Source of the DNA: Fimbriimonadales bacterium
GTDB lineage: Bacteria; Armatimonadota; Fimbriimonadia; Fimbriimonadales; ATM1
Length of the DNA stretch: 64,000 nt
Assembly: GCA_041744215.1 (NCBI GenBank)
Contig: JBGTLG010000030.1
Coordinates: 63,793-127,792 of the forward strand
Direction of reading: 5' to 3'
Each line of letters starts with the position of its first letter. Position 1 is the stretch's first letter. Below the pieces are notes generated by a model. That model was not told the origin of the DNA, ran no database searches, and saw only the letters and a list, made by a program, of their open reading frames with translations. The translations under genes were made by a program, and so were the position numbers. This document shows positions 9,705-49,361 of this stretch, one piece after another.

Positions 9705-10449
9705 TGTTGGCAACACGCATACGGTTGTCGGAAGATTTGATGGCGCCAACTGGTCATCGGTCTGGAGGCTCCCCACGCAGGCGGAACTGACTGAAGACTT
9801 TCTCGCGGCTACATACTTTTCACTTTGCCGCGAGAGTGGACTTGACCCAATTCCCAAAGCAGCCATTTGCGCGAGTGTCGTCCCCGCGCTAAACGAACCA
9901 CTGCGCCTCTTTGCAGAACGACATTTACACACGTCAATGGTGTTCGTCGCATTTGATACCATCTCAGATCTCGTTGTTAACTACCGCCCGCCCTCTGCAG
10001 TTGGCGCTGACAGGATCGCGAATGCAGTATCTGCGCTTCGTAAGTATGGTGCGCCTTGCATCATCGTTGACTTTGGAACCGCAACCACGTTTGACGTCAT
10101 TTCAGCCAAAGGCGCTTATGAAGGGGGCACCATTCTCCCCGGTGTTGAGTTGTCGCTGGGCGCACTCTCATCTCGCGCCGCAAAGTTACCAACAGTGGAA
10201 CTCACTGCGCCCGTTTCGGTGATCGGTCGGGACACAGTGAGCAGCATACAGTCAGGCTTCATATACGGCTACGCTGGCGCGATAGACAGTCTCGCAACTC
10301 GCATCCGTGCTGAGCTTGGCGCCGATGCCAAAGTCATTGCGACAGGCGGCTTAGCGGCAATGTTTTCAAAGCACTGCGCGATGATTGATGCGGTGGACAC
10401 TAATCTTACGTTAGATGGCCTTCGCTTCATCGCAGAGACGCTGCCCTAA
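9688..10449 (+). CDS. coaX: Type III pantothenate kinase CoaX
   Basis: Begins MLLAIDVGNTHTVVG and contains GADRIANAV and DFGTATTFD. ATG 9688 is preceded by GGAAGGAGGA and overlaps the glmM 3' end. Confidence 0.9.
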   Translation: MLLAIDVGNTHTVVGRFDGANWSSVWRLPTQAELTEDFLAATYFSLCRESGLDPIPKAAICASVVPALNEPLRLFAERHLHTSMVFVAFDTISDLVVNYRPPSAVGADRIANAVSALRKYGAPCIIVDFGTATTFDVISAKGAYEGGTILPGVELSLGALSSRAAKLPTVELTAPVSVIGRDTVSSIQSGFIYGYAGAIDSLATRIRAELGADAKVIATGGLAAMFSKHCAMIDAVDTNLTLDGLRFIAETLP

Positions 10450-11300
10450 TGATCTGGTTGGCATATTCCTGTTAGTATTTCGCGGACCCCATCCCGTCCA
10501 CTTCTTTTGCTTCTTCCGGCAAGATAGGCACACCCCATGCTGAATTGGACACCGCTCTCGCCGCTATATCGAATTGCCTTAGCCACTTTCCCTGCGAGAA
10601 TCCAATCCGCATACTCCTCGGCCCTATCTCCGGCCAGTATTACTTGCGCAGCTTCTCGCACAACCGTGTTGATAGGTTGGAGTAGCAGGCGGTCTGAATA
10701 GTCTACCGTTGCTTCGAGATCGTAAAGGTACACAACATCTCGAAGAATGGTGCTCGCTGTTTTCGGGCCCAACGTTCGAATCTGCACAAGCCTATCGAAT
10801 GCTGATTCGCATCGGTGCGTTTCGCTAATCTCGTTGCGTAACCACTCAACAATGTTGGCGTGGCCGAACTCCTCGTGAATCTCAAAGCCGAGGCCAGCTA
10901 TACCTTCTATCACCGGTCTATTCGACTGCTCTAGGCTTCGTCTGCCTTCGTCCGCACAGATTTCTTCATAGCTCAACCATAACGACTCCGAGTCACAAGA
11001 CGCCATGAACTCCATGAAGTCGCTTCCTTCTATGGTGCGATCGAGCGCACGCAGCATCATTCTTGACAAGACATCTCTGTCTTGCCCGCGTCGAAAGATA
11101 GCATAGTGGCCAAGCAACAACCGTAACGCGTTTTCAGGGGAAATCAATGCTTCGCGCACCGCCCCAGGGGTCAGTGCGTGCGCACGCACTACCCGTGAAG
11201 CCGTGGGAATCAGTATTTCTGACGCGTACTTATCAGCCGGCCAACTCGCGAGTGTTTGAATCAGTCGTTTCGCGCGCGAATCAAGTATGCCAGGCTGCAC
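10446..11300 (-). CDS. Hypothetical cytosolic protein with helix-hairpin-helix (HhH-GPD-like) segment
   Basis: LVQIRTLGPKTASTILRDVV followed by LLLQPINTVVREAAQ resembles the HhH plus VDTH region of EndoIII/Ogg-type glycosylases. The GTG start lies 9 nt after the stop of the upstream gene and is preceded by GGAG. The assignment rests on motif resemblance only. Confidence 0.45.
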   Translation of the reverse strand: MQPGILDSRAKRLIQTLASWPADKYASEILIPTASRVVRAHALTPGAVREALISPENALRLLLGHYAIFRRGQDRDVLSRMMLRALDRTIEGSDFMEFMASCDSESLWLSYEEICADEGRRSLEQSNRPVIEGIAGLGFEIHEEFGHANIVEWLRNEISETHRCESAFDRLVQIRTLGPKTASTILRDVVYLYDLEATVDYSDRLLLQPINTVVREAAQVILAGDRAEEYADWILAGKVAKAIRYSGESGVQFSMGCAYLAGRSKRSGRDGVREILTGICQPDH

Positions 11301-11309
11301 TTACTCCAA

Positions 11310-12584
11310 TCAGAACCTCGATGTGCTTGCCAAACCAACATAGATTGGCAGCGTCGGAGTTTGCGAACCGCCTCCCGCCGCCCCTCGTCGGACGACATCA
11401 AAGACCATCCAAGCAAACTCCCCAATGGCGATTCGATTGTTACGCATCTGCGCAAGCGTGTTCACAAAGCCAACAGTATAGGCGCCATGAACACTGTTCT
11501 CATGCACTGTGGAGTTGCACGTTTCGCCAGGAGCCGCGCCCATAGATTGAGCAATCTTTCCTACCTGCGGGATGTCGCCACCAAAAACTCGACCGTCAGG
11601 GTTGAGCTTCCGATCCACCTGATAAAATGTAAAGATGTTCGCCCCCTTCGGAACGAACTGAGCGTATAGGTCGTGCTTCGAGGCCCAGCCACCATCTGCA
11701 AACCCAACTCGATCACGACCGCTTTCGTCATTCTGCACGGGTCCTGTGTAGTAAATCAGGACTGTTCCCCCGTCGGGCATGGCGTCTGCAAGAGTCTTTG
11801 CAGCAGTAGAGAACTGCGCGCTTGTAGGATTCTTTAGTGTCGTGACATTCTCTTCTGCGTAACCTGCATGCCGGACGAGTGCGTCCTTAAGCAAGTCAAC
11901 ATCAGCTGTGGCATACGCATGGCTGCCTTCACCAACGCCGATGATTAAGGCGAATTTGTAATCCAGCGCGGGAACGATGCCGAAGGGATTGTCAAGACCC
12001 GGAAGCGCCATTCCGACCGTGTCAATGTTTCCCGTCCCTCGCAGGACTCCGCTGAGAACTCTCATGTCCTCGTAATCAATCACGTCTCGGTCAACCTTGA
12101 ATGATCGAGCAGGATCGATTTGTTGGAGCCTCTCCTGAACCACAGCGGCTTCTTGCGCTCGGTTGTCGGCCGCAAGCGCCGCTGCCAAAAAGAGCATCGA
12201 TTCGATACTCTCCTGACCCTTTGCGGTGAGACTACGGAACTCTTCAATCGACTTAGCCAGAAGATCTTTCCGCTCCGTCGGGTTTGCTGCGTTTGCTGCC
12301 ATTTTGAATGCGCTATAGGCTGCCGCAAAGTTTGGTGAGTAGGCTGCCCCGTCTCTCCATGGGCGTCTGTTGGTGATACTTGTGCCGATCTGGCTGGGGC
12401 GATCGGAGTCGGCGGCTCTGTCACTTATTGCGTCGAGGAAAAACTGGCGCGCGCCAGCCCAGTTGCTTTTTCGCGACTCCGCGAGGCCCTTCTCATATGC
12501 GACGCTCCACTTGTCTGCGAGAGCCGTCGAAGCAAGAATTGTGCCGAGGAAAACCAGAGTTATCGTTAGTGACCGTCTTGACAT
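11310..12584 (-). CDS. Secreted TPR-like plus caspase-fold (clan CD / CHAT-like architecture) protein, apparently lacking the catalytic dyad
   Basis: The signal peptide is MSRRSLTITLVFLGTILASTALA. The N-terminal half is helical-repeat. The C-terminal half matches the caspase p20 pattern (KFALIIGVG..DVDLLKDALVRHAGYAEENVTTLKNPTSAQF..DGGTVLIYYTG..ANIFTFYQVD). AGGGAG precedes the ATG. Confidence 0.6.
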   Translation of the reverse strand: MSRRSLTITLVFLGTILASTALADKWSVAYEKGLAESRKSNWAGARQFFLDAISDRAADSDRPSQIGTSITNRRPWRDGAAYSPNFAAAYSAFKMAANAANPTERKDLLAKSIEEFRSLTAKGQESIESMLFLAAALAADNRAQEAAVVQERLQQIDPARSFKVDRDVIDYEDMRVLSGVLRGTGNIDTVGMALPGLDNPFGIVPALDYKFALIIGVGEGSHAYATADVDLLKDALVRHAGYAEENVTTLKNPTSAQFSTAAKTLADAMPDGGTVLIYYTGPVQNDESGRDRVGFADGGWASKHDLYAQFVPKGANIFTFYQVDRKLNPDGRVFGGDIPQVGKIAQSMGAAPGETCNSTVHENSVHGAYTVGFVNTLAQMRNNRIAIGEFAWMVFDVVRRGAAGGGSQTPTLPIYVGLASTSRF

Positions 12585-12590
12585 ATCGCT

Positions 12591-13727
12591 TTATCTCCCT
12601 CCAAGCAAGAAAGACATTGAAACCGTGAAGTCTGGTCGGCCCTGTCCACTGGCAGCGGCAAATCCCAAATCGACAGAGTAGTCTTCTTTGGTGGGCCTGT
12701 AACCCAGGCCAAATGTTAGGACATCTCGGCTTGCGAAGTTGGTACCGCCCTTGTCTGTGATTCGGAAACCGAGGCGGACAGGGATGTAGCCAAAACCATG
12801 CGCCCAGTTGTACTCAAAGCCCAGGCCTGCTGCGATCTGACTACTTCGCGACAGGATCTTTCCCCCGTTCGCTGGAAAGAAATACATCGCATCGACTCCG
12901 CCTATCAAGTAGTCGCGGCCGCCCCTCAAGTTGTCGGCACGCCAGACGACGCCTCCCTGCAGCCGAGCCGGAATTGCGCTCGCGAAAGCGTCCACTTCAC
13001 CCATACCCATGAGTCTTATCTCGCTACGATAGCTAAACCCAAACTGGACGTTCGACTTTTCTTGGGGCGCGAACTGTACACCAACGATCCCACCGATGCC
13101 CCAACCGCTACCGCTGACATCGACATCTTCTAGAACGGTGTTGTTTTGATCTTGGGAGAACACTCGATTCGAGATCGCTTGATTCGCGATAACAATCCCG
13201 CCACCGAAGTTAACACGACCGTTGCTCTTGCCGTATGCGATCGTGAAGAAGTCAGTGGAGGACCTCAGGAGTTCGTTCTTCGTGATGGTTTGACCAGGAT
13301 TATCCGGGTTGGTCAGGTTGCTGCCGCTGCCAAAATCGCGGAGGTGTCCGCCCAGCGCGTAGCTGACGCCAAGCGTGCCGCCCGCCATCGGCATTACGAT
13401 GCCCGCAAACGTGATTCCGGATCCGCCATAAGCACTTGTCGATGATCGATCCGGTGCGTCATAACGCCCCGTGAGCGACGTTGTAGCGTCCGGCCGGTTT
13501 CTAAAGTTGATCTCTGCACGGGAGTCCTTAATCGCGCCGAGTCCCGCGGGGTTCCAGAATGTGGAACTGACGTCGGAAGAGTTTGAGTAGATCGCCCCAC
13601 CCATACCGAGGGCTCGTCCTCCCATCTCAAAAGCAGTGAACAAGTCAGGTACGTCGGCAAAGGCGACGCCGGTCAATGTCGCAACGACTGCAACCGATGC
13701 CGGTCGCTTCCATGCATGAGTTTTCAT
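12591..13727 (-). CDS. FadL/PorV-like outer-membrane beta-barrel protein
   Basis: Has a signal peptide, then the N-terminal motif GGRALGMGGA..SSTFWNPAGLG typical of the FadL/PorV/UPF0164-type barrels. Alternating Gly/aromatic beta-strand patterns continue throughout, and the C-terminus is hydrophobic (VSMSFLLGGR). Confidence 0.65.
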   Translation of the reverse strand: MKTHAWKRPASVAVVATLTGVAFADVPDLFTAFEMGGRALGMGGAIYSNSSDVSSTFWNPAGLGAIKDSRAEINFRNRPDATTSLTGRYDAPDRSSTSAYGGSGITFAGIVMPMAGGTLGVSYALGGHLRDFGSGSNLTNPDNPGQTITKNELLRSSTDFFTIAYGKSNGRVNFGGGIVIANQAISNRVFSQDQNNTVLEDVDVSGSGWGIGGIVGVQFAPQEKSNVQFGFSYRSEIRLMGMGEVDAFASAIPARLQGGVVWRADNLRGGRDYLIGGVDAMYFFPANGGKILSRSSQIAAGLGFEYNWAHGFGYIPVRLGFRITDKGGTNFASRDVLTFGLGYRPTKEDYSVDLGFAAASGQGRPDFTVSMSFLLGGR

Positions 13728-13766
13728 CCTCTTAGTTTTTCCTTCCCTGAGATTGATGTGATTGAC

Positions 13767-14789
13767 TTATCGCAACCATGGTAGCAATGGCCGCGACGTG
13801 CTACGCGCGCGGCTGGTGGTCAGAGGGACTTCCTGCGTAGTGGCCGGGTTGCCAGCCTTATCCACACAAGAGATCACCAATTTGAAATCAGTAACGCCTC
13901 CAGGCAATATCACTCTGACGAGACCCGTCCACCGCGAAGTTGTCGTGTTTCGCTCTGTGTAGCTAATGCGACTCACACGTTTTATGAACTGTCCGCCCAT
14001 CGTCCGCAACTCGACGATGATCGCACCGATGTCAACGGAGTCAGGTGCTGAGTCGATAACGTCGAACGAGACTCCCATCTGACCATTGGGAACAACCAGT
14101 TGATTCGCTCGTGGGAACAGCACAAGGAGCTCCGGTGAAGCACGATCCAAGATGACCTTTATCTCTTTCGTTTCCGAGTTTCCAGCGAGGTCCTTAGCAG
14201 TAATCTTGATTGTTTGTTCGCCGTCTTGCTCAATGTTCGATGGATCCCAGATTACGGACACGTTGTTCCCGCCACCAGTATTGTTGGGGATGTCCTCGTC
14301 ATTGACCGTCACGCGCCACTCTTCCATGTTCAATTCTTGGATGAGTGCGGTTATCGTCAGAGGGCTGGCATTGATGAATGAGTTGGTTGCAGGCGAGAAG
14401 TCGACAATTTCGGGTTTGCTGGTGTCCAGCGTCACTTGCAGTGTGATGGGCGGTAACGGCGTGCCTCCATGGGTGGAGGTTATCGTGACGTCATAAAGTC
14501 CCTCGGGGAATGAAGTGCCGGGATTCCAAGTGGCAGAACCCTCGCCATTACCCTCTGCATTTGGCTCAATCTGAACCACAGGCAGGGTAGTAGATGGGTT
14601 GCCCCCCGGATTCTTCTCGATTTTGACCGTAACGCGAACTTGCTGGCTTGCTCCGGTCACGCGGAGGCGGAAAGTGTTAGACGTGCCAACGAATTCACCG
14701 TCGATCGGGCTGGTCAACGTCAAGGTCTGAGCGAATCCCGACGCAGTGAAGGCGGCTAAGACCATAGTTAAAAGCAATTTTCTGATCAT
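13767..14789 (-). CDS. Secreted protein with about three bacterial Ig-like domains
   Basis: The start was trimmed to ATG 14789 (MIRKLLLTMVLAAFTASGFAQ signal peptide, AAGGTGA upstream). Domain boundaries repeat in the style VTLDTSKPEIV and VILDRASPELLV, and composition is beta-rich. Confidence 0.6.
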   Translation of the reverse strand: MIRKLLLTMVLAAFTASGFAQTLTLTSPIDGEFVGTSNTFRLRVTGASQQVRVTVKIEKNPGGNPSTTLPVVQIEPNAEGNGEGSATWNPGTSFPEGLYDVTITSTHGGTPLPPITLQVTLDTSKPEIVDFSPATNSFINASPLTITALIQELNMEEWRVTVNDEDIPNNTGGGNNVSVIWDPSNIEQDGEQTIKITAKDLAGNSETKEIKVILDRASPELLVLFPRANQLVVPNGQMGVSFDVIDSAPDSVDIGAIIVELRTMGGQFIKRVSRISYTERNTTTSRWTGLVRVILPGGVTDFKLVISCVDKAGNPATTQEVPLTTSRARSTSRPLLPWLR

Positions 14790-14854
14790 CTGATTCACCT
14801 TGAGCCCCGACCGCAGGGGCGCCTCTGTATACGCCAAAAGCGTCCAGTTCTCTA

Positions 14855-15688
14855 CTATGGACGGACAGCGGCGCGGTTTGATTGTTCCGAATTATGCACC
14901 AAGAAGCGCACAAACTCGTGGACTCCCCCGGAATCGTGCCGGGCTACGATCCGATCTGCCTCAGCCTGAACCTCGGGCGGGGCGTTCGCCACGGCCGCCG
15001 AGAACGCTGCCCAGCGGAGCATGGGGATGTCATTGTGGTAGTCCCCGATCGCGGCCGTTTGGCTCCTCAGAACCCCGAGATGCCCTGCTACAGCCGCCAA
15101 ACCCGTGCCCTTGTCGGAGGAGGACCCGATCAGCTCAAGGTACTCGGGCTCGGATCGAACCACAGAAACCCCTTTATCAGCAAAGATGGCAGCTGCCTCC
15201 AGCGATAGATCTTTTGCCTGAGAAGGTGCGGCCATGGCAATGACCTTGTGAGCGGAGGAAGCCAGCATCTCCTCACGCGTGGCGACCCGATGCTCGGCGC
15301 GACGCACCCGCCCAAGGTAGATCTCTGTCCAAGCGTTCGACTCCGGTATGAGAATCTCGTTGTCTTTATAAATGTGGGCGTGGACCCCGTTGTCCCAAAA
15401 GAAGCGAAGTGCTCGCTGGACGATAGCTGCCGGAAGGCGCGATTCGGTTATCACGCGACCGTACCTAGAGACTACGTACGCTCCGTTACACGAGATCAGA
15501 GGAGTATCCAACCCAAGTTCCTCCGCGTACTGGAGCATTCCACTAGCAACTCGTCCGCTCGCCAGCACGACTTGGATGCCGGCGGCTAGGGCGATGTTCA
15601 CCGCTTCAGCAGAGTCTGGTGGGATCGATCGGTCAGAGTCAAGGAGCGTGAAATCAAGATCGACGGCGAGCAAGCGAACTGCGGACAC
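14855..15688 (-). CDS. Cof-type HAD-IIB phosphatase
   Basis: HAD motif I is LLAVDLDFTLLD and motif IV is IGDYHNDIPMLRWA. The GTG start at 15688 overlaps the TAG stop of the upstream aminotransferase by 1 nt. The longer track ORF would overlap that gene by about 110 nt. Confidence 0.8.
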   Translation of the reverse strand: MSAVRLLAVDLDFTLLDSDRSIPPDSAEAVNIALAAGIQVVLASGRVASGMLQYAEELGLDTPLISCNGAYVVSRYGRVITESRLPAAIVQRALRFFWDNGVHAHIYKDNEILIPESNAWTEIYLGRVRRAEHRVATREEMLASSAHKVIAMAAPSQAKDLSLEAAAIFADKGVSVVRSEPEYLELIGSSSDKGTGLAAVAGHLGVLRSQTAAIGDYHNDIPMLRWAAFSAAVANAPPEVQAEADRIVARHDSGGVHEFVRFLVHNSEQSNRAAVRP

Positions 15689-16809: not shown

Positions 16810-16819
16810 TTTGGTCTCC

Positions 16820-17851: not shown

Positions 17852-17866
17852 GGGATTAGGATACCG

Positions 17867-17909: not shown

Positions 17910-17928
17910 CCGAGTGCGGTACAAGCGA

Positions 17929-20157
17929 TCAGCGAGTGATCGTCCAGACAACTTGATCGACCCTCATCAACCAACCAAACGAGAATAGTGTCCCCGGGTC
18001 TATAAGAGCGACACGCGCTCTCATAGCTCTCGTGCCAGGCTGAATGAAGCGAGCCGGATTGCTCGGGGTGACCTCAACAAGTTGGTCGGACGATGTCGCC
18101 GAGCGTGTGTCGACAACCACCCATTGATTGGCCTGATAGTCGAACATCGAAATCCTCTGAGTGACAGCGCTTGCCGGAAGTCCCGAAGTAGATGAGATGA
18201 TGCCGAACTTCAGCGACGATGGGCTTTCAATCGAGGCGACCGACTCAACCTGGAGGTGCGTTGAGGGAGTACCGAGTCCAAGCGGCGGGGCCTCCCGGAC
18301 GAGGAGCCTGGAGCCGTCGTTGTCAAGGAGGTCAGGCAGTCCGGCACCTGGCTGCTCTATACCGAACAAGACTTGGTATGACGTGGGCCCGACCGAGCCA
18401 GACAGCGGCGCCTGAACCTGAGCACGGAGCAGATAGGGGACGGTGCCCGGCTTGAACTGACCAAGCATAACTGTCGAGGGTGCACCTGCTGGCGCGACGT
18501 CGGCGTCGAACTCAAAGTTGTACGCCGAAGAGTACTTCAGCGAGTTGGCGTTCGGGTTCTGGGCGTGCGTTTGCGTCGACCAGGTCACCTTGCCATTTGC
18601 GTAGGTGCCAGCCCAGTTGTTCCCAGCATCCTGATCGACGTCTCGGAACACGATGTTCGAGATGTTTGCACCAGCGAGTACCGGAACCGAAAACTCGCGG
18701 ATTTGTCGATCGAGGTCGTGGACGTAGACGACGTACAGGTAGCGATAGTTGCCTCCACCGAGGTCAAGGACTTTCACGCCAACCCAAGCGTCACCCTCGG
18801 TTCGCGGCGTCGCAATCTGCGCATTTGGGTCCCAGTACTTTAGCGCCGGATCCCTAACGATTGCGGCGGCATTGGTACTGAACGACCATTGGGAACCCGT
18901 CCAGTTCGCTGTTGCCCGCCGGTACCCAATGTTGTTGTACTTGTCGATGTCGTTTTGTAGGATGTAGTACGCCTCGTAAAGGAACTCCGCGCCTGCCACG
19001 TTTAGGTCTGCGTCGAGAACTTCAAGCCTGTGGTCGACAGCGTTGCTGACGCTGCCTGAGTTGTTGCGACGGACACAGTCGTCAACGTAGTTGGAGAACC
19101 ACGATCCGCGGCACTCCCAATAGCCCGTAAACGGATTTACCTCTTTGCGCTCGCCGAGGTAAGTGCGGTCGCCGTTGTTTCCGGTGCCGTACGTGTCCGT
19201 ACAATTCAAGCCTAACTGGTTGCCGCCACCTGGCGGCTGCTGACAAGAGCCGCACCCAGAGGAGTTGGTAGACAGAAAGCCGTGCTTTAGCCAGCTGAGT
19301 CCAACGTGCTCGAATCTGTTGTTGTGAAGCCGGTACAGGTTCATCGCGATGACGGGATGGTTCTGATTCATCGGAGCAAACCAGCTAATCGGGAAGGCAC
19401 CTACATTGCAGGACGTCGTTGACATCGATAGCCCATTCCGACCATTGGGGAAAGTTCCAAGCCGCCCTAACGACGTCAAGCTGCTCATATTGAACAGTTG
19501 GCAATCAACTGGATTGGGATTGTCTTCGCCACCACCGCCGCCGCCATCGGAGGCGAAAGCCGGAGGGTCGATTTTGCCTGCGATAAGTTCGAGATTCGCT
19601 GTGAGGCTCACCCAACCCACCAATTGTCCTGCTAGCTCAGGTCGGCCAAACGCGCGCGCAGTAGCTTGGCTGAGGCTCAGGTCCGCAAACGCGATCATGA
19701 GTTGCCGAGTGAATGGATTCAGGTTGACTTTCGCGTGCTTCAAATCCAGGGAAAGCCGGCCAACATTGATGGTGAATGCGGACTCCGGGTCGGAGCCTGC
19801 TGTAGATAAAGATGGATTATGGAAAGAGTGGCGATTGCGACCGACATTCAGCGCAAAGCCACCGTCGTGACGAACCTCGCCGCCGACGAAGCGGACGATG
19901 CTGCCGTTGTCCCCTTCGATAATGAGGGTAGACCTTGGGGTGATTGCTAACCCGAACGCTCTCTCCATTTCAACGGATGGTTCAGCGGTTGCCCTGACAT
20001 CTGTAATGTTCATTCCCAGATCTCGGAGCAGACTATCGAGCAGCGAAATCGACATATCGCCGCCTTTCACCTGCCACGTCTGCTGTGCCATCGCGTTCTG
20101 GGTCGCAAGTGCGAAGCTAGCTACGGATACGGCGACGATAAAGTTCTTGAATCTCAT
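17929..20157 (-). CDS. Large secreted hypothetical protein with a Cys-rich central region
   Basis: The start was trimmed to ATG 20157 (GGAAGGAG upstream), giving the signal peptide MRFKNFIVAVSVASFALATQNAMA. Nine Cys cluster in the central region (..VDCQLF..TSCNVG..SSGCGSCQQ..LNCTDTYG..YWECRG..DDCVRR..). No family was recognised. Confidence 0.6.
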   Translation of the reverse strand: MRFKNFIVAVSVASFALATQNAMAQQTWQVKGGDMSISLLDSLLRDLGMNITDVRATAEPSVEMERAFGLAITPRSTLIIEGDNGSIVRFVGGEVRHDGGFALNVGRNRHSFHNPSLSTAGSDPESAFTINVGRLSLDLKHAKVNLNPFTRQLMIAFADLSLSQATARAFGRPELAGQLVGWVSLTANLELIAGKIDPPAFASDGGGGGGEDNPNPVDCQLFNMSSLTSLGRLGTFPNGRNGLSMSTTSCNVGAFPISWFAPMNQNHPVIAMNLYRLHNNRFEHVGLSWLKHGFLSTNSSGCGSCQQPPGGGNQLGLNCTDTYGTGNNGDRTYLGERKEVNPFTGYWECRGSWFSNYVDDCVRRNNSGSVSNAVDHRLEVLDADLNVAGAEFLYEAYYILQNDIDKYNNIGYRRATANWTGSQWSFSTNAAAIVRDPALKYWDPNAQIATPRTEGDAWVGVKVLDLGGGNYRYLYVVYVHDLDRQIREFSVPVLAGANISNIVFRDVDQDAGNNWAGTYANGKVTWSTQTHAQNPNANSLKYSSAYNFEFDADVAPAGAPSTVMLGQFKPGTVPYLLRAQVQAPLSGSVGPTSYQVLFGIEQPGAGLPDLLDNDGSRLLVREAPPLGLGTPSTHLQVESVASIESPSSLKFGIISSTSGLPASAVTQRISMFDYQANQWVVVDTRSATSSDQLVEVTPSNPARFIQPGTRAMRARVALIDPGTLFSFGWLMRVDQVVWTITR

Positions 20158-20271
20158 CTCAAGGGTTCTCCTTCCCAATAGGTGCTGAGTGCCAAGCAAA
20201 GGCACTGACTTATTCTGACGCAACTTCGGGGGCATTCCGTTCAGAAGCAGCGCCACTTCTCTAAACTGGTA

Positions 20272-22170
20272 TCAGTACGGGGTATCGATTTCAGGAGCCA
20301 ATCTCTTCAGCCTGCTGAAGAGCGCACGAGCCGTCTCATCGTCGCCTCTTGCGCGGTAGAGAAACGCATTTGCATACCACTTCGCCACATCCTCAGCGGG
20401 AGCGCGAATTCCTTCCTGGAGTAGCTCGTCAACCTTTCCTGTCTCCCTCGCAAGCAGGGCCCAAAGGGCGAGAAGCTGAAAATCGAGCGGCCTGGCCCGA
20501 CGAGCCTCCTCAGCGAGGTCGAAGGCTTCCTCCAGTCTCCCCGCAGCGCGCAATTGGGCCGAAGCGCTGAGCAGATTTCCCGGCGTCCGGTGCGTTTCGA
20601 CCAGCCGCAGCATCAACGCGGCGGAGTCGCCGCCCCGACCGGCAGCAACCAGAGCATCGTTCAGGCCGTAAATCCGCATCGGGTAAGTGGGAAGAGCCGG
20701 GTCGGTCTCCTCGACCACGCGAGTCAGCTCTCGGATAGCCTCCTCGTCGCGGCCTGCCAGCGCGAGAGCGCGGCCGTATGAAAAGCGCAGTTCTGAGTCA
20801 GCGTGATTCACGCTTACCGCGCGCTCGAGGTGCGTGGCTGCTTGCTCGGCCTCGCCAGAAAACAGCAGCAGCGCGCCCAGTCGCGCCTCCCACTTCTCCA
20901 CAAGCACCGGCGAGAGCGAAATCACGCGGCGATAGTGCTCCAGGCTCGCGGTCAGCTCCTCAACTGAAGGACCGGATTGGCCGCTTTGGTACGCCGCCTC
21001 GCCTTGGCGCACGTGGAACATAACGAACGATGCGTAGCCAAGAAACACCACGAGGCATACTACAAAGCCCGCGTACGCCCACCCGGCCGCTGTCCGCTTC
21101 CCTTGCGAGCGCAACTGCCACCTTTGAAGGCGCGTGTTCGGACTCGTGAACAACCGAAGCCCAGAGAGCAGCAGATAGGCACAAATCGCAGATAGTCCCA
21201 GCGCGAGGAGAAACGGCACCGCCTCATACAACCCTCGGAGCGCATAGAGAGCGAACACAAAGGAGCCAGCCGCGAAGAACTCCTCCCCCCAACTCAAATC
21301 GTACTCGCGCTTCTTTCGCTCGGGACGCCGCGATGCTACACCTGGCTTGCCAAAACCCCAGTACAGCGCCCCCTTTGGACAAACATCAACGCAGTCCATG
21401 CACTTCATGCACCCCGAATCCACCACCATCCCGTGCTCCCGCACCTCCTCGTGCACCCGTACGTTCGACGTGCAAGCCGTCGTACAGTGCCCGCAGCCGT
21501 CGCAAGCGTCGGTCACACGAATCTTCCCTGGAGCGACCGCGTCGGCGTAATAGAAAATCCCACCATACGGGCAGCCATACGTGCAAAAGCCCTTGTTGCC
21601 GAGTAGCGCGACGATCAGAAACCCACACACAGCGAACGTCAGGATCGCGATGCCGACGGTGGGAAAGGGACTCCAAAAGTCGTCCGTCGTAAAGTGCGCA
21701 ACCCAGCGCGGCGCCTCGCCACCCGAAGCCATCCGCAAAACCGTTGGCCACGCAAACATATAAAACGCCGCGAGCAGCGGCACGAACACCAAAAGCCTCG
21801 AACGAAACGGCTTCGGGCGGATGCCGATCTTGCGCAAGAACCAGCCGCACAAATCCTGTAGCGCAACCACATGGCAGCCCCAGCCGCAAAAGAAACGCCC
21901 CAGCACCAACGTTGAAAGGATCAGCAGCGCAAACAGCACGAACCCTGCGTTCACATAGCCCAACTCCAGCGTCTGCATCGCCTCGCTAGGCTCGACGGGC
22001 GTGATCGTCGTGCCCGCCAGCTTCCAGTGGACAATGTGCGCCGCGATGAGCACGTGCACCCCGATCAGCACCGCAGCGCGCCAACGCCCGCGACGAGACG
22101 AGCGTGGCTTGCCCGCACTTGAGCGCTGCGAGTGGATCAGTGGAAGCGGTCTGGTCAGACGACGACTCAC
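20272..22170 (-). CDS. Membrane polyferredoxin (NapH/FixG-like 4Fe-4S protein) fused to a C-terminal TPR domain
   Basis: It has multiple TM helices. Cys clusters are FFCGWGCH, GFCTYGCPYG, CDGCGHCTTAC and CMKCMDCVDVCP. The C-terminal roughly 250 aa are TPR-like helical repeats. Confidence 0.7.
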   Translation of the reverse strand: MSRRLTRPLPLIHSQRSSAGKPRSSRRGRWRAAVLIGVHVLIAAHIVHWKLAGTTITPVEPSEAMQTLELGYVNAGFVLFALLILSTLVLGRFFCGWGCHVVALQDLCGWFLRKIGIRPKPFRSRLLVFVPLLAAFYMFAWPTVLRMASGGEAPRWVAHFTTDDFWSPFPTVGIAILTFAVCGFLIVALLGNKGFCTYGCPYGGIFYYADAVAPGKIRVTDACDGCGHCTTACTSNVRVHEEVREHGMVVDSGCMKCMDCVDVCPKGALYWGFGKPGVASRRPERKKREYDLSWGEEFFAAGSFVFALYALRGLYEAVPFLLALGLSAICAYLLLSGLRLFTSPNTRLQRWQLRSQGKRTAAGWAYAGFVVCLVVFLGYASFVMFHVRQGEAAYQSGQSGPSVEELTASLEHYRRVISLSPVLVEKWEARLGALLLFSGEAEQAATHLERAVSVNHADSELRFSYGRALALAGRDEEAIRELTRVVEETDPALPTYPMRIYGLNDALVAAGRGGDSAALMLRLVETHRTPGNLLSASAQLRAAGRLEEAFDLAEEARRARPLDFQLLALWALLARETGKVDELLQEGIRAPAEDVAKWYANAFLYRARGDDETARALFSRLKRLAPEIDTPY

Positions 22171-33094: not shown

Positions 33095-36000
33095 ATGATT
33101 TCGAAAGAACTCCCACGATCCGGGGCTGTCTTGCTCCGTACGCTTGGCTCGCGCCTGGCGTTGTTCATTTTCCTGCTACTTCCGTCTCTCGCTTTGGCCG
33201 CCGGTGGCGAAAACGTCGAGCTGGTGTTCACACAAAGCGATCGAAACTTCCTCCTCGCTTCGCTGGCGATGTCGGTCCTCGCGATCGTAGTCGGCTTCTG
33301 GCTGCGGGCGTGGGTTCTGCGGCAAGACCCTGGTAGCGAAGAGATGCAAGACGTCAGCGCGGCGATCCAAGATGGCGCATTGGCGTACCTGCGGAAGCAG
33401 GTGATGACGATGCTGGTTTTCGTCGTCCTGCTCGCTGTTGGGCTGTTCTTCCTACACATGAATGATTACGCGGGGCGCGTGATCTTCGGAATTCCTGTTA
33501 GCGTTTGGCTGGCGATTTCCTTCGTCTTGGGCGTAGCGGCATCCTACTTCGCTGGATATGTCGGCATGATCATGGCCGTAAAGGCGAACACCCGAGTGGC
33601 AGGTGCCGCGCGAACGAGCGCTGGCCGCGCCTTGGAAGTGGCGTTCCGCGCGGGCGGTGTAGCGGGAATGGTGACGGTCGGCATGGGTCTTCTTGGCGCC
33701 ACCGCGATCTTCCTGTTTGCAGGCAGTGAGGCCATGAAGCTTCTGATCGGATTCGGATTCGGCGGCTCTCTCGCAGCGCTCTTCATGCGTGTTGGCGGCG
33801 GCATTTACACGAAGGCTGCCGACGTGGGCGCAGACCTGGTCGGCAAAGTTGAGGCGGGTATTCCTGAGGATGACGCCCGCAACCCAGCGACGATCGCAGA
33901 CAACGTTGGCGACAACGTCGGCGACTGCGCTGGTATGGCTGCCGACATCTTTGAATCCTACGAGGTTACGCTTGTTGCCGCGATCATTCTTGGTGCAGCG
34001 ACAGCTTCAATCTTTGACCAGTCGACGTGGATGAAGTTGATCCTCTTTGCGCTGATGGCTCGCGGTGTTGGCATCATCGCCTCAATTCTCGGAATCTTCT
34101 TTGTCCGCGGCAGCGACGACGAGCGTGTCGATCCGCTGTCGCCCATTCGGCGCGGTTTCTGGTTCTCGGCGGGAGTGGCCGTTTTAGGGACGCTTCTACT
34201 CTCCTACTTTATGATGCAGGACGTACGAACGCAGTTCTACGTTGATACCAAAGGCAACGCACACGGCGGTCTGACCGACATCCCACTGGAAGACCTGCGC
34301 GTCATTGGCATCCTTGATGCCGCGGAGATGCAAGAAAAGAACAAGGCGATGATGGAGGGCGGACAAGCTGACGCCAGCAAAGTCTTTACTGACGAAGAAC
34401 TTTTGATCGCCTCGAACGCACTCATCACTGAATTCGGTACACAGCAGGCGGAATCTTACAACCAGCAGAAAGCGGCCTATGACCAGATGGTCAAAGAAGC
34501 GGAAGAAAAGGGCGAGACTCCTCCGCCAAACACCCTCGGCCCTGCGCCAGTCGCCCCCGCGCCACTCACGATCGAAGAAGTACGGCGCGTTCGCGGCGAA
34601 CCGATTGGCGCGTACACGGTAGTTGCTGAGAACGCCCCACGCGGTTCTGTGGCGCTGTTCATCTTCGGACAAACGCTTGGCCCGGGCCTCACGGTTTCGG
34701 ATCCGCTCCTCGTCAAGCAAGAGCGGGCGGCAAACCCGTTCCAGCAAGACAGCGAAACGCAAGAAGCGTGGGAGTTCACTTCACAAGCGCGTTTGGATAT
34801 GCAACCGGATGGCCCACAGCCGCTCGAGCGAGTCAAGGTGGGTATCGCCTTCGACCGCGCGGGAGACCTCTTCTGGACCTTAGAGAAGCCAGTTAGCGAT
34901 GATGCAATGCTCTCGCTGCCGCAATTGAGCTACTCCAAAGAGAAGCATGAGTCTGATCCGATGGGTGGCCAAAAGGTCTTAGCCGATGGTACTGCACTCG
35001 CAGTTTCCAAAGAGACGAAAACTGTCGAATGGTGGCGGTTCTTCCTGGCAATCGCGTTCGGTGTGATCATGGCGTTCTTCATCGAATTGTTGACGGACTA
35101 CTTCGTCAGCTTCGAAAAGAAGCCAGTGCGCGAGGTTGCTGCGGCTTCGAGCGCAGGCCCTGCACCCATGATCATCCAGGGGTTCGCGTATGGCATGGAG
35201 AGTAGCGTCTGGTCTGTCTTCGCAATAGTCATTTCGCTGCTGGCACCATTGTTCATCTTCCCGCCAGGTGATTACGGCGGGTTCATTCTAAGTTTCTACG
35301 GGATCGCTCTGGTGGGACTCGGTCTTTTAACTACGACAGGTTACATCCTCGCGATGGACACTTTCGGCCCGATCAGCGACAACGCGCAAGGCGTCTACGA
35401 GATGTCGGGCGCAGCCCACAATGAAGTCAAGGAAGAAGGCAAAATGGCTGGCGGACGTGCGGTGCAGCGGCTCGATGCCGCCGGCAACACGACGAAAGCG
35501 CTGACGAAAGGATTCGCCATCGCGACGGCTGTCGTCGCAGCGGTTGCGCTCTTCCACGCATACTTGGACAGCGCCAATCTTGAAGCGGTCGGTCTAAGAC
35601 TGGAGATCCCGCAGATCTTCATCGGACTTCTGATCGGCGGCGCGACTCCATTCTTGTTCTCAGCGTTCTCAATCAACGCGGTTGGTCGTGCAGCATTCCA
35701 GCTAATCGGCGAAGTACGAAGGCAGTTCGCCGCAGATCCTGGGATCATGAAAGGGACCAGCAAGCCTAACTATGCTAAGTGCGTCGAAATCGTGACCGCC
35801 GCCGCGCAGAAGGAACTGCTCGGTCCGGGCATCCTCGCGATCGCGCTGCCGGTTCTGGTTGGGTTTGGACTCAGCATCGGCGCGCAGCCCGTCACGATTG
35901 GTGGCAGCGAGTACAACCTTGTTGGCGCGCAGGCGTTAGGCGGGTTCCTAGCTGGCGCGATCCTGTCTGGCCAGTTGCTTGCTGTGCTACTCGCTAACTC

Positions 36001-36361
36001 AGGCGGTCTGTGGGACAACGCAAAGAAGCTGATCGAGGATGGACTGCACGGAGGCAAGGGCTCGGATGCTCACAAAGCCGGCGTCGTATGCGATACCGTC
36101 GGAGACCCGTTCAAGGATACGGCCGGACCTGCGCTGAACCCGCTGATCAAAGTCATGAATCTCGTCGCCCTTCTGTTGGCGCCGGTTGTGATTCTGCCGC
36201 TTGCGAACACGACGCTGATGGTGATCGTCGCCATCGCTGTGATCTTCCTCGGCATCGCGATCTACTGGTCAAAGCGCGGCTCGATTGGCAGTGAGATCGC
36301 CGCAAACACTGCGGCGGCAGATGCCCGAGCTGCTGCGAAGCGAGACAGTGACGATCAGTAA
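33095..36361 (+). CDS. hppA: Membrane-bound ion-translocating pyrophosphatase (M-PPase) with a large internal insert
   Basis: Contains DNVGDNVGDCAGMAADIFESY, LTDYFVSFEKKPVREVA, GGLWDNAKKLIEDG and VCDTVGDPFKDTAGPALNPLIKV. At 1088 aa it is far longer than typical family members. Confidence 0.9.
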   Translation: MISKELPRSGAVLLRTLGSRLALFIFLLLPSLALAAGGENVELVFTQSDRNFLLASLAMSVLAIVVGFWLRAWVLRQDPGSEEMQDVSAAIQDGALAYLRKQVMTMLVFVVLLAVGLFFLHMNDYAGRVIFGIPVSVWLAISFVLGVAASYFAGYVGMIMAVKANTRVAGAARTSAGRALEVAFRAGGVAGMVTVGMGLLGATAIFLFAGSEAMKLLIGFGFGGSLAALFMRVGGGIYTKAADVGADLVGKVEAGIPEDDARNPATIADNVGDNVGDCAGMAADIFESYEVTLVAAIILGAATASIFDQSTWMKLILFALMARGVGIIASILGIFFVRGSDDERVDPLSPIRRGFWFSAGVAVLGTLLLSYFMMQDVRTQFYVDTKGNAHGGLTDIPLEDLRVIGILDAAEMQEKNKAMMEGGQADASKVFTDEELLIASNALITEFGTQQAESYNQQKAAYDQMVKEAEEKGETPPPNTLGPAPVAPAPLTIEEVRRVRGEPIGAYTVVAENAPRGSVALFIFGQTLGPGLTVSDPLLVKQERAANPFQQDSETQEAWEFTSQARLDMQPDGPQPLERVKVGIAFDRAGDLFWTLEKPVSDDAMLSLPQLSYSKEKHESDPMGGQKVLADGTALAVSKETKTVEWWRFFLAIAFGVIMAFFIELLTDYFVSFEKKPVREVAAASSAGPAPMIIQGFAYGMESSVWSVFAIVISLLAPLFIFPPGDYGGFILSFYGIALVGLGLLTTTGYILAMDTFGPISDNAQGVYEMSGAAHNEVKEEGKMAGGRAVQRLDAAGNTTKALTKGFAIATAVVAAVALFHAYLDSANLEAVGLRLEIPQIFIGLLIGGATPFLFSAFSINAVGRAAFQLIGEVRRQFAADPGIMKGTSKPNYAKCVEIVTAAAQKELLGPGILAIALPVLVGFGLSIGAQPVTIGGSEYNLVGAQALGGFLAGAILSGQLLAVLLANSGGLWDNAKKLIEDGLHGGKGSDAHKAGVVCDTVGDPFKDTAGPALNPLIKVMNLVALLLAPVVILPLANTTLMVIVAIAVIFLGIAIYWSKRGSIGSEIAANTAAADARAAAKRDSDDQ

Positions 36362-46331: not shown

Positions 46332-49300
46332 CTATTCCTTCGCCCTAAACCTAACGCCTATCTTGCCGGGCGACTCCGCATCCTCAGATTTGGGCCTTTC
46401 CCTCGTCTTCGTGGGGCCAGTCTTCGAAGGTGCACGTGACCGGGGCTGGGGCTTGGGTTTAGGTTTAGGTTTCTGTTCGCTTCTTGTTCTTAACTGCCCG
46501 CGCGGCTTCGGTGCATCAACGGTGTCTTCCTCGTGCGTATCCTCCTCTTCCAAGGGCTGGTCGCCGAACATCACCATTAGTTCATCTGCGTCGCTCAATC
46601 CAACCAACGACACCTCGTGGTGGAAGGCGTCGTCGTCGAGCGTATCTGGTTCTTGATCTGGGATAGTCTCAAGTGTGAGCAAGGCATCGGAACTGAGATC
46701 CGCGAGACGATTGACTTCCTCTTCTTCGCCCACCAGAAGGACCTGAGTTGCCCCATCCGTTGCCTGGCTTCGGAAGTGGGTTGCGTCTGCGCTGACTATC
46801 TGGTTGCTGACGATATCGTACGCATGCAATCGATCTGGCAATGTCGCTGTTCTGTGACCCGAGCCCGAAAAGTGAATGCTGAGATGGGGTTTTCGCACAT
46901 GCACAACGTCACCGTGGTAGTTCCATATCTGGACACCTGCCATTTGACAGAGACCTCGAATGATCTTTTCGTTCACGAGCGGCTCACCCAAAAACACGCT
47001 TCGCCAGGTTTGTGATTGATCTTCATCCGAGGTTATCTCTCGCACCACTAAGCTCGGCAGACCCGTCTGTGTATATTCTCCGAGCACAACGCATCCTTCT
47101 TCTGGTATTGCAAAGAAGCTGGGCTCAAGCTGATCAACGACGCTGAGAGCGCGTTCTTCGAGTAGTTCAGTAAGCGGGTGCTTTCTGTTAAGAATTGTGG
47201 TGCCCGCTCTGCTGCTAAACGGTTGCGGACGTATCGCGATCCCAGTGATCTCGCGCACACGTTCGAGCGCTGGTCGGCCCGACTCAAACTGCCCGGCCGA
47301 GTAGACCCAAAAGAGCGTCTTTCCGTCACGCTGCAGCCGATTCTTGATGGCCGCGCGGACTTCAGGACGTGTATCCCAGGCGTTTAGGAAGATGTAGATC
47401 TTTGCCTCTGGGAACCGAAGCCGATGGGCCAAGTCGCTAAGGAGGTAGAAACCAGCGCTAACCCCTGCCCTCAAGACGGCTTCACGTGAGTCTTGTATGA
47501 GCTGCTTGAAGGCTCTTTGGTCGCTCAGGTAGGCGATACTGCGCTCATCGATGAGGACCGCTACGTCAGGATCGGAAGCAGGCGCAGCCGTCGCTTTTAT
47601 CAAAGCATCCCTCACTCGCCGTGCTCGCTGCCAAATCGCAGGTGTGTTTAGCCAACCGTTCCCCCATAGATCCATCCACGCGATGCCGGTCCCGTGTGCC
47701 ACTGCACTACCGAGTCCGCGCCAGTGGGCAGCTTCGAGCGCTTGCGGAGTTGCCATTGCAGGATTGAAGTCATCCGGTTCTGCGCCTTCACTAATCGGTG
47801 TCTTGAAGTCTTCTTCGCTTATGAACAGTTTCCCGTTTAGCGCAAAGCTGTCGATCGGTCCGGGAAAGGAAGCCGCGCCACCCATCTGTCTGTCGCGATA
47901 AGACGGCGGACCGCAGATGATATCAATCTCACGCGTTCGAAGCAACTTACCGAGACTGAGGTGTCCGCTTGCAGGGTGTGACCACTCGAAGGTGTACCCG
48001 TAGCTCACTGCAACGAGGAGCCGTCCTTCCGATGCTCGCTTCACTTCGTGCGCAAGGTTTTGGATGCGTGCAACGTGCGCGTCGCTGAGAAACAGATGGT
48101 AGTCCACCCATCTGCGTTCTTTCCTGCTTTCTCTGAGGAAGCTCTCGCCGGATATCGGTACTGTCCCAAACTCGGGAATCTTCAGAGTGTCAAACCGCGC
48201 GCGCCCATCGAACCATGCGGCCTGAAGTGCAACAGTGTCGTTGCCGTATCTCCATCGCGCCCACAAGCGAAACGCATCTTCTGCTGATCTGCTCGTGTCG
48301 TATCCCCAACCATCGGCGAAGAACCACTCACCACGATCCAAGTGTATCCCGAGAATCCTGGCACCGTTCTCGAGTGATAACAAGCCGCGGGCAAAAGCTC
48401 CGAGAAGTCGCTTTGCTTCACCCCAAAAGCTCTCATCCGAGACGCTCGGCTCTGCAAGTGTTCCATCTTGAAAGCGAAATGCGGCGGATGGGAACCGCTT
48501 GTCCCAACCCGGCGCGCCGGCGAACACAACCCGGAACATCACTCTAGCCGCCGGATCGATCTCAACTACCCTGTTAAGAAGATACGTTGCTATGTCGAAT
48601 GCATCTTGCACAAGATCGTTGTCGACCGGAAACTCAATCATCAAGCTGTGCACATGCACACCAGCATCTGCCGCTCTTGCAACTTCGGACAACACAATTT
48701 CGGCTCTGCGCTCATCACTTGGGTTGCCGAAGAATATGAACGGTGGTATGACTTCGTGCCCGATCACGATCGTCGGTCTGCCACCTATACGCGCGACTCG
48801 AGGTGCATCGACAGGTGTCGGAATCGGCGGATACTCTGGCGAAAACGGCTTCGGTTTCGGCTTAGTGGAGGGTAGCGGTTCTCTCTCTGCCGGCGCCCGC
48901 TTCGGCCGGACTGTCGCCTCTTTCCGACCTGCATTGTCGGAGCGTGACGTCCGCTTGCTCGTGACCGCCTTCTGCGGCCCTCGGGAACGTGTTTTCTCTA
49001 CAGGCGGAGGCTGTTCGCCCTTAGCACGGAAACGAACTTTCAAGCCGATGCTTGCGGGCGCAGGGTCAGTCTGCTCGATCGGGGCGATTTTCTCAGCCTC
49101 AGGCTTCTTCCTGGTGCGCGTCTTTAATGTAGGCTGCGCACCCGATTCGCTTATCGGCGGTGCCTCGGGTGCCGTCTTTCTCGCGCTGACGCGTCGAGCG
49201 GTCTTCGGCTTTTGTTCGTCGGCATCCTTGTTACGGGCACTCTCGGAAGTAGTCTTTGGTTTCGTCGTTCGAGTGCGCTTCGCTTTTGTCGCATCATCGT

Positions 49301-49361
49301 TTGACTGAGGCGCCGCCACTTCTTCAGTCAAAGCGTCCTCGTCATTTTTCTTTCTGGGCAT
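46332..49361 (-). CDS. Large hypothetical protein with a GH42-like (TIM-barrel plus trimerisation-like) core flanked by Lys/Arg/Pro-rich disordered tails
   Basis: The roughly 185-aa N-terminal and 90-aa C-terminal segments are low-complexity and basic. A core segment, KIYIFLNAWDTRPEVRAAIKNRLQRDGKTLFWVYSAGQF, resembles the GH42 trimerisation domain. The stop lies 3 nt before the era start. The fold call is weak. Confidence 0.5.
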   Translation of the reverse strand: MPRKKNDEDALTEEVAAPQSNDDATKAKRTRTTKPKTTSESARNKDADEQKPKTARRVSARKTAPEAPPISESGAQPTLKTRTRKKPEAEKIAPIEQTDPAPASIGLKVRFRAKGEQPPPVEKTRSRGPQKAVTSKRTSRSDNAGRKEATVRPKRAPAEREPLPSTKPKPKPFSPEYPPIPTPVDAPRVARIGGRPTIVIGHEVIPPFIFFGNPSDERRAEIVLSEVARAADAGVHVHSLMIEFPVDNDLVQDAFDIATYLLNRVVEIDPAARVMFRVVFAGAPGWDKRFPSAAFRFQDGTLAEPSVSDESFWGEAKRLLGAFARGLLSLENGARILGIHLDRGEWFFADGWGYDTSRSAEDAFRLWARWRYGNDTVALQAAWFDGRARFDTLKIPEFGTVPISGESFLRESRKERRWVDYHLFLSDAHVARIQNLAHEVKRASEGRLLVAVSYGYTFEWSHPASGHLSLGKLLRTREIDIICGPPSYRDRQMGGAASFPGPIDSFALNGKLFISEEDFKTPISEGAEPDDFNPAMATPQALEAAHWRGLGSAVAHGTGIAWMDLWGNGWLNTPAIWQRARRVRDALIKATAAPASDPDVAVLIDERSIAYLSDQRAFKQLIQDSREAVLRAGVSAGFYLLSDLAHRLRFPEAKIYIFLNAWDTRPEVRAAIKNRLQRDGKTLFWVYSAGQFESGRPALERVREITGIAIRPQPFSSRAGTTILNRKHPLTELLEERALSVVDQLEPSFFAIPEEGCVVLGEYTQTGLPSLVVREITSDEDQSQTWRSVFLGEPLVNEKIIRGLCQMAGVQIWNYHGDVVHVRKPHLSIHFSGSGHRTATLPDRLHAYDIVSNQIVSADATHFRSQATDGATQVLLVGEEEEVNRLADLSSDALLTLETIPDQEPDTLDDDAFHHEVSLVGLSDADELMVMFGDQPLEEEDTHEEDTVDAPKPRGQLRTRSEQKPKPKPKPQPRSRAPSKTGPTKTRERPKSEDAESPGKIGVRFRAKE

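Follow-up and report, generated by a model that had tools for sequence, protein, structure and literature searches.

A predicted envelope gene cassette of the Fimbriimonadia links a FadL-type barrel to a secreted pseudo-caspase

A class-specific envelope cassette

We analyzed a stretch of 64,000 nucleotides (hereafter the window) of contig JBGTLG010000030.1 from a Fimbriimonadales bacterium (Armatimonadota), in which four minus-strand genes, designated A, B, C, and D, follow one another at very short distances. Judging from their sequences, the first three constitute an envelope cassette specific to the class Fimbriimonadia, with a core of three proteins predicted to be exported by the Sec pathway and not to be lipidated: an immunoglobulin (Ig)-like protein (A), an outer-membrane barrel of the FadL superfamily (B), and a protein combining tetratricopeptide repeats (TPR) with a caspase fold devoid of its catalytic residues (C). 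The reading that we consider best, although only tentatively and as possible rather than probable, is that they form an outer-membrane complex without enzymatic function, with the FadL-type barrel B as its base. The superfamily of each protein was already known, so that what is new is their combination, of which we could find no description: our literature search on the envelopes of Fimbriimonas and Armatimonadota returned nothing on an A-B-C cassette, and we likewise found no account of a FadL-type barrel to which, throughout a class, a secreted TPR-pseudocaspase is coupled. The genes and their tightest junction are the following:

Gene A: 13767..14789, minus strand, 340 aa, ATG start at 14789; predicted to be secreted (Sec type), with three Ig-like domains in tandem
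Gene B: 12591..13727, minus strand, 378 aa; 14-strand outer-membrane barrel of the FadL superfamily with an N-terminal hatch
Gene C: 11310..12584, minus strand, 424 aa; predicted Sec-type secreted TPR-pseudocaspase with a signal peptide at residues 1-23
Gene D: 10446..11300, minus strand, 284 aa, GTG start; cytoplasmic orphan, facultative fourth gene
B-C junction: 12585..12590, minus strand, 6 nt; the tightest and best-kept junction of the cassette

The intergenic gaps measure 39 nt between A and B (13728-13766), 6 nt between B and C (12585-12590), and 9 nt between C and D (11301-11309). Every start is preceded by a purine-rich Shine-Dalgarno (SD)-like motif, namely AAGGTG for A, GGGAAGGA and AAGAGG for B, GGAGGGAG for C, and TTGGAG for D. 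In these respects the open reading frame (ORF) list and the sequence agree exactly with the first-pass annotation, which had described four minus-strand genes with those gaps and an SD motif each. For A, the family alignment favors the ATG at 14789, a longer version starting with TTG at 14837 being unsupported. A scan of positions 9500-20500 for promoters and terminators returned fewer sites than shuffled sequence and did not define the operon ends.

Distribution and linkage

Homologues of C are confined to the Fimbriimonadia. Our search in the species representatives of GTDB yielded 101 confirmed stretches, of which we kept 80 loci (those of relatives are numbered with L, and relatives of C with P), two of them carrying labels suggestive of mis-binning. 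When 1.84 billion representatives were searched exhaustively with HMMER, the C family comprised ~108 clusters (50% identity) and ended sharply, with only caspase-domain matches in unrelated large proteins beyond it. A second homologue search with a 69-sequence profile found no distant relatives among the matches listed. When the window proteins were compared by tblastn with 88 loci, A, B, and C were collinear and on the same strand down to ~30% identity. This arrangement occurs in 64 of the 70 loci with enough upstream sequence, drawn from at least 80 Fimbriimonadia species, with identities of 30-80%. Homologues exist for each of the four ORFs, and most informative loci preserve the A-B-C order, so that the arrangement of A to D is not due to chance. 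The co-conservation of the trio that the first-pass annotation had wished to see checked across phyla is therefore real within the Fimbriimonadia and does not extend to other phyla, and the four-gene operon that it described is reduced to an A-B-C core, with D following C in 34 of 75 loci. Among the six remaining informative loci, three hold partial matches and three truly lack A and B. These last, C-only loci are L040 (6977-8293), L059 (6968-8308), and L045 (5799-7145), arranged as HAD-C-D, HAD-C, and C alone (HAD, haloacid dehalogenase-type phosphatase gene).

The median distance between B and C, measured in 74 loci, is 7.5 nt; 69 of these loci have at most 20 nt, and in seven the genes overlap. 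B and C are translationally coupled nearly everywhere. The median gap between A and B is 31 nt. The cassette is retained under changed flanks, which include CheA/CheW/FliD genes upstream, a DHDPS gene downstream, or a rearranged PanK-GlmM-GrpE block (PanK, pantothenate kinase), and clustering of all neighboring ORFs in 85 neighborhoods revealed no further conserved partner family. In a mirror-tree analysis, the distances of A, B, and C kept a residual correlation of 0.35-0.54 after control with housekeeping genes, compared with 0.02-0.15 for PanK, a support that we regard as weak, since trivial causes can produce such correlations between fast-evolving envelope proteins. Two loci carry labels foreign to the class: L058 (7001-8359), labeled ‘Methanoregulaceae archaeon’, contains a Fimbriimonadia A-B-C followed by convergent PanK, GlmM, and GrpE genes, and L062 (5532-6821), labeled ‘Archangium gephyra’, a Fimbriimonadia A-B-C with a convergent PanK gene and an upstream HAD gene before the contig end. 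Both contigs were probably mis-binned in those metagenome-assembled genomes.

B, a FadL-superfamily barrel with a PorV/PorQ-like hatch

Single-sequence searches of the PDB with B, C, and D gave nothing usable, so that family profiles were needed. The AlphaFold model of B is a barrel of 14 strands (pLDDT 79, pTM 0.77). Compared with PDB structures using Foldseek, its top match by E-value is Escherichia coli FadL (3.5e-12, TMq about 0.6), and its best TM-score among all fold matches is that with the BamG protein of Flavobacterium johnsoniae (9n2d_B, TMq 0.66). Another BamG structure (9hiv_F) has an E-value of 7e-11, the BamG of Bacteroides thetaiotaomicron occupies rank 6, and TodX and CymD have E-values of 1e-8 to 1e-9. 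PorV (8gl6_F) comes behind FadL, BamG, TodX, and CymD, only at rank 28 (E 1.4e-5, TMq 0.49). The Pfam family Toluene_X (PF03349) scores 28.5 bits on B (E 6.8e-7), just under its gathering cut-off of 29.7; a protein identical to B bears a precomputed PF03349 label, and 10 of 21 B relatives match this family. The FadL equivalog of NCBIfam is matched by one of the 21 relatives, far below cut-off.

The sequence of the hatch points elsewhere. The NCBIfam model PorV_fam scores 40.4 bits on B (cut-off 90), covering only hatch residues 33-77, and is matched through the hatch by 20 of the 21 family members, with a best E-value of 1.2e-12 and every score below cut-off. The T9SS_OM_PorV equivalog reaches 11.7 bits on B against a cut-off of 250, B is also far under the PorQ cut-off, and all NCBIfam PorV/PorQ-type matches of the B family fall within residues 30-87. 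B is therefore a member of the FadL superfamily whose fold is nearest to FadL and BamG and whose hatch sequence is nearest to PorV/PorQ. The FadL-type barrel of the first-pass annotation is borne out by the fold matches and the 14-strand model; the PorV likeness that it also proposed holds for the hatch sequence, but not for the model scores or the fold rank. The hatch and its characteristic motif are located as follows:

Hatch (plug) of B: 13521..13655, minus strand, residues 25-69 (~45 residues); best-conserved part of the protein
NPA motif of the B hatch: 13545..13553, minus strand, N59-P60-A61; invariant in 21 relatives

The hatch is the region of B with the highest information content (2.99 bits per column). 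The mature N-terminus lies 35 residues before the NPA motif, close to the situation in E. coli FadL, where the asparagine of this motif is Asn33 (N33A mutant structure), and residues G126-G127 are conserved in strand 3. When conservation is mapped on the predicted topology of B, the hatch and the periplasmic halves of the strands are conserved and the outer parts are variable.

C, a secreted TPR-pseudocaspase

The AlphaFold model of C (pLDDT 82.9) consists of a helical N-terminal domain, a disordered spacer, and an alpha/beta C-terminal domain, in which we distinguish the following features:

TPR-like helical-repeat domain of C: 12042..12512, minus strand, residues 25-181; helix pairs in the model
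Invariant loop of the TPR domain: 12327..12410, minus strand, D59...W76-R77-x-G79-x-x-Y82-S83-P84-N85-F86
Flexible spacer of C: 11973..12041, minus strand, residues 182-204; pLDDT below 50 over residues 184-202
Caspase-fold (C14-like) domain of C: 11313..11972, minus strand, residues 205-424; without catalytic dyad
Catalytic-His position: 11739..11741, minus strand, Pro282 codon; the SGHG counterpart reads TG-P-V
QACRG counterpart: 11607..11621, minus strand, Q322-V-D324-R325-K326; Asp at the Cys position

An N-terminal hydrophobic segment is present in all 86 C relatives examined and a lipobox-like match in one of them. TPR models are matched by part of the family (TPR_2 in 15 and TPR_16 in 12 of 69 relatives, best E 3.5e-8), TPR_16 being sub-threshold on the window protein itself (E 0.052). 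In many relatives the spacer is much longer, at 100-300 residues, with abundant Pro, Lys, Ala, and Thr (for example P0114, P0119, P0104, and P0090); this highly variable length suggests that the TPR and caspase-fold domains are leashed to one another and not rigidly spaced. The window protein alone has no Pfam match, and Peptidase_C14 (PF00656) is matched by 54 of 69 relatives; the family profile retrieved metacaspase-4 from the PDB (E 1.7e-4), and Foldseek placed metacaspase-9 first (E 7.4e-9, probability 1.0), followed by caspase-9 and MALT1, the top matches all belonging to C14. The secreted TPR-clan CD protein announced by the first-pass annotation is thus recognizable in its repeats and its caspase fold, which is of the C14 and not of the gingipain type.

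The catalytic histidine of caspases lies in an SGHG motif and the catalytic cysteine in QACRG or DxCxSG. Neither residue persists in C. HMMER aligns the ‘HYSGHG’ of metacaspase-4 with ‘ffsGaa’ of the C family, and across 84 relatives the column of the histidine contains A, V, N, Q, P, or S. The QACRG counterpart reads Q322-[V/A]-[N/D/P/S/H]-R325-P across the family, with Q or E at position 322, N, D, P, S, H, or R at position 324, and an invariant R325. The caspase domain has no conserved Cys or His column in these 84 sequences, and the only columns of C where Cys or His reaches at least 20% are Cys at 91 and His at 239. Outgroup caspase-domain proteins collected with the same profile retain AGHG and DACFSGG or DTCHS. 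With both catalytic residues gone throughout the family, C is a pseudo-caspase and should be unable to act as a PorU-like sortase. Scans with Pfam and NCBIfam detected no peptidoglycan-binding domain in C or in its scanned relatives.

By these substitutions, C is a pseudo-enzyme comparable to the pseudo-orthocaspases, bacterial non-catalytic caspase homologues some of which are fused to TPRs (Klemencic et al. 2019, PMC6426788). In them, too, the His-Cys dyad is replaced and a non-proteolytic, scaffold-like role is presumed. They differ from C in their fixed substitutions (YS, YA, FS, and QC) and their presence mostly in Cyanobacteria and Alphaproteobacteria (PMC6426788), whereas in C both positions are variable, a Sec signal peptide is predicted, the distribution is limited to the Fimbriimonadia, and the gene is operon-coupled to that of an outer-membrane barrel.

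A, a protein with three Ig-like domains

In A, a signal peptide (residues 1-20) precedes three domains (~21-122, 123-216, and 217-326) and a short basic tail. Its Ig-like nature, as annotated before, is supported by Pfam Big_13 (33 bits, above the cut-off of 27), and 27 of 31 relatives match an OmpL47-type Ig-like domain. By hhalign, domain 1 is homologous to domain 2 (92%), and domain 3 resembles the streptococcal Ig-like surface protein R28 (E 0.002). All 70 A relatives examined possess the N-terminal hydrophobic segment and none of the 70 has a lipobox. Two relatives match the NCBIfam PorU model (E ~8e-4), which we attribute to the common Ig-like domain and do not count as evidence.

A candidate outer-membrane complex and its alternatives

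Recent structures show that barrels of the FadL family are more than lipid channels; those of Bacteroidota also hold partner proteins in PorV-PorU and PorQ-PorZ from the secretion system of type IX (T9SS) (PMC5562754) and in BamG-BamH and the paralogous, operon-encoded pair BamG2-BamH2 from the machinery for beta-barrel assembly (BAM) (PMC12578637, PMC12611786). In the complex that we tentatively propose, a stoichiometric assembly without enzymatic activity, B would sit in the membrane as anchor or channel. C would be exported to the periplasm and use its TPR domain and the invariant WRxGxxYSPNF loop to dock on B (or on A), while its dead caspase domain, kept leashed, would bind ligands or peptides instead of acting as a protease. 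A would be the third subunit, and neither proteolysis nor transpeptidation would take place. The Cof-type phosphatase gene upstream and D downstream would be frequent co-transcribed cytoplasmic genes outside the core. Such a complex might work in two ways. Hydrophobic cargo entering the barrel could be handed to the periplasmic partners, in a manner reminiscent of the FadL-like outer-membrane proteins TP0548, TP0859, and TP0865 of Treponema pallidum, in which the barrel, of FadL type, bears a TPR extension presumed to be periplasmic and for which protein-protein contacts serving cargo hand-over have been proposed (PMC8407342); there the TPR module is fused to the barrel, whereas here it belongs to a separate polypeptide with a dead caspase domain, and the likeness is architectural, without any claim of homology between the TPRs. 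Alternatively, the barrel could be a docking platform, as PorV/PorQ and BamG are for their partners (PMC5562754, PMC12578637, PMC12611786).

That B is a dedicated platform on which a dead receptor of caspase fold and an Ig-like protein are kept at the outer membrane is in itself unlikely. If true, it would be the first PorV/PorQ- or BamG-style barrel-plus-partner module outside the Fibrobacteres-Chlorobi-Bacteroidetes (FCB) superphylum, in a diderm of the Terrabacteria, and would imply both an ancient and general role of FadL barrels in holding partners and the ability of a pseudo-caspase to serve as a binding subunit. A three-gene cassette kept across a class of Armatimonadota in any case offers a defined set for asking whether the barrel-partner principle exists outside the FCB group, and it also bears on the role of a secreted, catalytically dead bacterial caspase homologue.

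Several observations weigh against a complex of A, B, and C. From their sequences, A and C can be placed either in the periplasm or on the cell surface. B keeps all the checkable FadL hallmarks (NPA motif, hatch length, and strand-3 Gly-Gly), so that it may simply transport a hydrophobic substrate alone. Its conservation map is a generic outer-membrane-protein pattern that singles out no partner-binding face, and therefore does not separate a platform from a channel. The wider region (HDOD...HAD-A-B-C-D-PanK-GlmM-GrpE) is largely syntenic across the class, so that part of the A-B-C adjacency may be inherited gene order, and C occurs without adjacent A and B in three species (L040, L045, and L059). 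According to the main rival explanation, B is an ordinary stand-alone FadL-type channel for hydrophobic substrates, and A and C are unrelated periplasmic neighbors kept beside it by inherited gene order. We consider this rather unlikely. The FadL/TodX/OMPP1 family (PF03349; PDB 1T16, 3DWO, and 3BRZ) shares with B the 14 strands, the NPA hatch, and a near-FadL hatch length, E. coli FadL leads the fold matches, G126-G127 are conserved, and the synteny of the wider region in many genomes is what inherited order predicts. B differs from that family in that the Pfam score falls just under threshold with fewer than half of the relatives matching, the hatch sequence is nearer to PorV/PorQ than to FadL, and characterized FadL channels show no translational coupling to a gene for a secreted TPR-pseudocaspase. 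The very short B-C gap, overlaps included, the persistence of the trio under changed flanks, the correlation of A, B, and C distances that survives the housekeeping-gene control, and the presence of the C family only where the B barrel family occurs speak against unrelated neighbors.

Other arrangements around the barrel appear less probable. C could be an outer-membrane tether, with its TPR domain on the barrel, its pseudo-caspase as a peptide binder on the cell wall or another periplasmic layer, and its Pro/Lys/Ala-rich spacer extended across the periplasm. An extended low-complexity spacer between two folded domains, in a protein coupled to an outer-membrane barrel, would suit this role, and the pockets of the clan CD caspase fold bind peptide side chains. 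Nevertheless, a spacer varying from ~20 to ~300 residues among relatives is unfit for a fixed-distance tether, no peptidoglycan-binding domain was detected, and the binding of stem peptides by a dead pocket is a supposition, which makes a tether quite unlikely. Still less likely is an accessory of BAM in which, as in Bacteroidota, B would lie against BamA and carry A and/or C as a folding vestibule. BamG proteins are among the best fold matches of B, that of F. johnsoniae having the best TM-score and that of B. thetaiotaomicron rank 6, and in both BamG2-BamH2 (PMC12578637) and the cassette a FadL-family barrel is encoded alongside the partner for which it serves, or would serve, as a platform. 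But BamG is defined by a conserved N-terminal extension of ~10-12 residues beyond the FadL hatch (PMC12578637, PMC12611786) that B does not have, BamH to BamK are surface lipoproteins whereas A and C are not predicted to be lipidated and have different folds, and no bamA or bamD gene, nor any other link to BamA, was seen in the 85 neighborhoods.

Finally, the first-pass annotation had likened the genes to the T9SS attachment module, with a PorV-like B presenting the Ig-like cargo A to a clan CD sortase C for processing and anchoring. The resemblance is genuine in several respects: as in PorV-PorU and PorQ-PorZ, a FadL-superfamily barrel is encoded beside clan CD-fold secreted and Ig-like proteins, the Ig-like gene comes first, the B hatch is closest to the PorV/PorQ models (20 of 21 members match PorV_fam, best E 1.2e-12), and the idea of a barrel that holds partners is common to both. 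A sortase module of this kind is largely refuted by the missing catalytic dyad of C, and we regard it as highly improbable. PorU activity depends on its catalytic cysteine, the C690A mutant being the inactive form (PMC5562754), whereas C has lost both residues, and its caspase domain shows no conserved Cys or His elsewhere across the 84 relatives. Its fold is C14-like instead of gingipain-like and the NCBIfam T9SS_sortase model does not match it. Signals for a T9SS C-terminal domain are equally missing: no model, Por_Secre_tail included, matched A at E-values up to 1, none matched C at the same limit, and the 31 A relatives gave no match at E-values up to 0.1; nor was such a domain detected in the C family. 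B remains far under the PorV and PorQ cut-offs, with PorV at rank 28 by fold. In the 85 neighborhoods and among the window proteins that were compared with Pfam, which cover most of the larger ORFs, we found no component of the T9SS, SprA/Sov and PorK/L/M/N included; several large ORFs of the window are without any match. The SprA translocon is moreover regarded as specific to the FCB group (PMC12611786), and the host belongs to the Armatimonadota, in agreement with the earlier judgment that the organism did not look like a member of the Bacteroidota. A clan CD fold beside a PorV-like barrel need not, then, mean a sortase.

Gene D, flanking genes, and the rest of the window

D lacks a signal peptide and contains an invariant G178-P179-K180 within a helix-hairpin-helix (HhH)-like motif (GPKTAS). 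This motif is all that supports its former description as HhH-like, which no search confirmed: neither D nor its 13-member family profile has a Pfam, NCBIfam, or PDB match, and hhalign against E. coli endonuclease III aligned the GPKTAS and DWILAGK regions with a probability of 2.9%. Downstream, D adjoins the convergent PanK-GlmM-GrpE block. Its stop codon overlaps the end of the convergent PanK gene by 4 nt (10446..10449), which leaves no intergenic room for terminators.

The gene preceding A is a frequent upstream member of the cassette:

Cof-type HAD-IIB phosphatase gene: 14855..15688, minus strand; ends 65 nt before A

Its ORF extends to a GTG at 15796, the likely start being GTG 15688 or TTG 15673. 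The product matches the Cof-subfamily model of NCBIfam (163 bits, cut-off 137) and Pfam Hydrolase_3 (E 2.9e-51). This gene precedes A in 37 of 65 loci, including loci where the other flanks differ; the gap is 34 nt in the median, and two loci show a 4-nt overlap. Beyond it, on the same strand, are sugar genes encoding a mannose-1-phosphate guanylyltransferase-like protein and a DegT/PseC-like aminotransferase. Together with the phosphatase gene, they correspond to the upstream nucleoside diphosphate (NDP)-sugar module of the first-pass annotation, whose genes are real; we rejected the link with the cassette because the nucleotidyltransferase-DegT pair adjoins it in only 5-6 of 85 loci, those of the closest relatives.

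Directly upstream of the sugar genes, an ORF of 775 aa (17929..20256, minus strand), which has a hydrophobic N-terminal segment and matches nothing in Pfam or NCBIfam, has a homologue only in the closest relative, L009 (74% identity). A 632-aa protein (20272..22170, minus strand) is of unusual architecture, in which ferredoxin-type 4Fe-4S domains are combined with C-terminal TPRs. Farther along, a H+-pyrophosphatase ORF of 1088 aa (33095..36361, plus strand) matches Pfam H_PPase (645 positions) in two stretches, which suggests a large insertion or an N-terminal extension. Four large minus-strand ORFs, at 46332..49361, 49456..51741, 58390..61149, and 62039..63949 (1009, 761, 919, and 636 aa), have no Pfam match at E 1e-5. 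A permease gene of the LptF/LptG family (51726..52958, minus strand, E 3.7e-69) implies a lipopolysaccharide-type outer membrane in the armatimonadotal host, and the 761-aa ORF, being located directly upstream of this gene, may be envelope-related.

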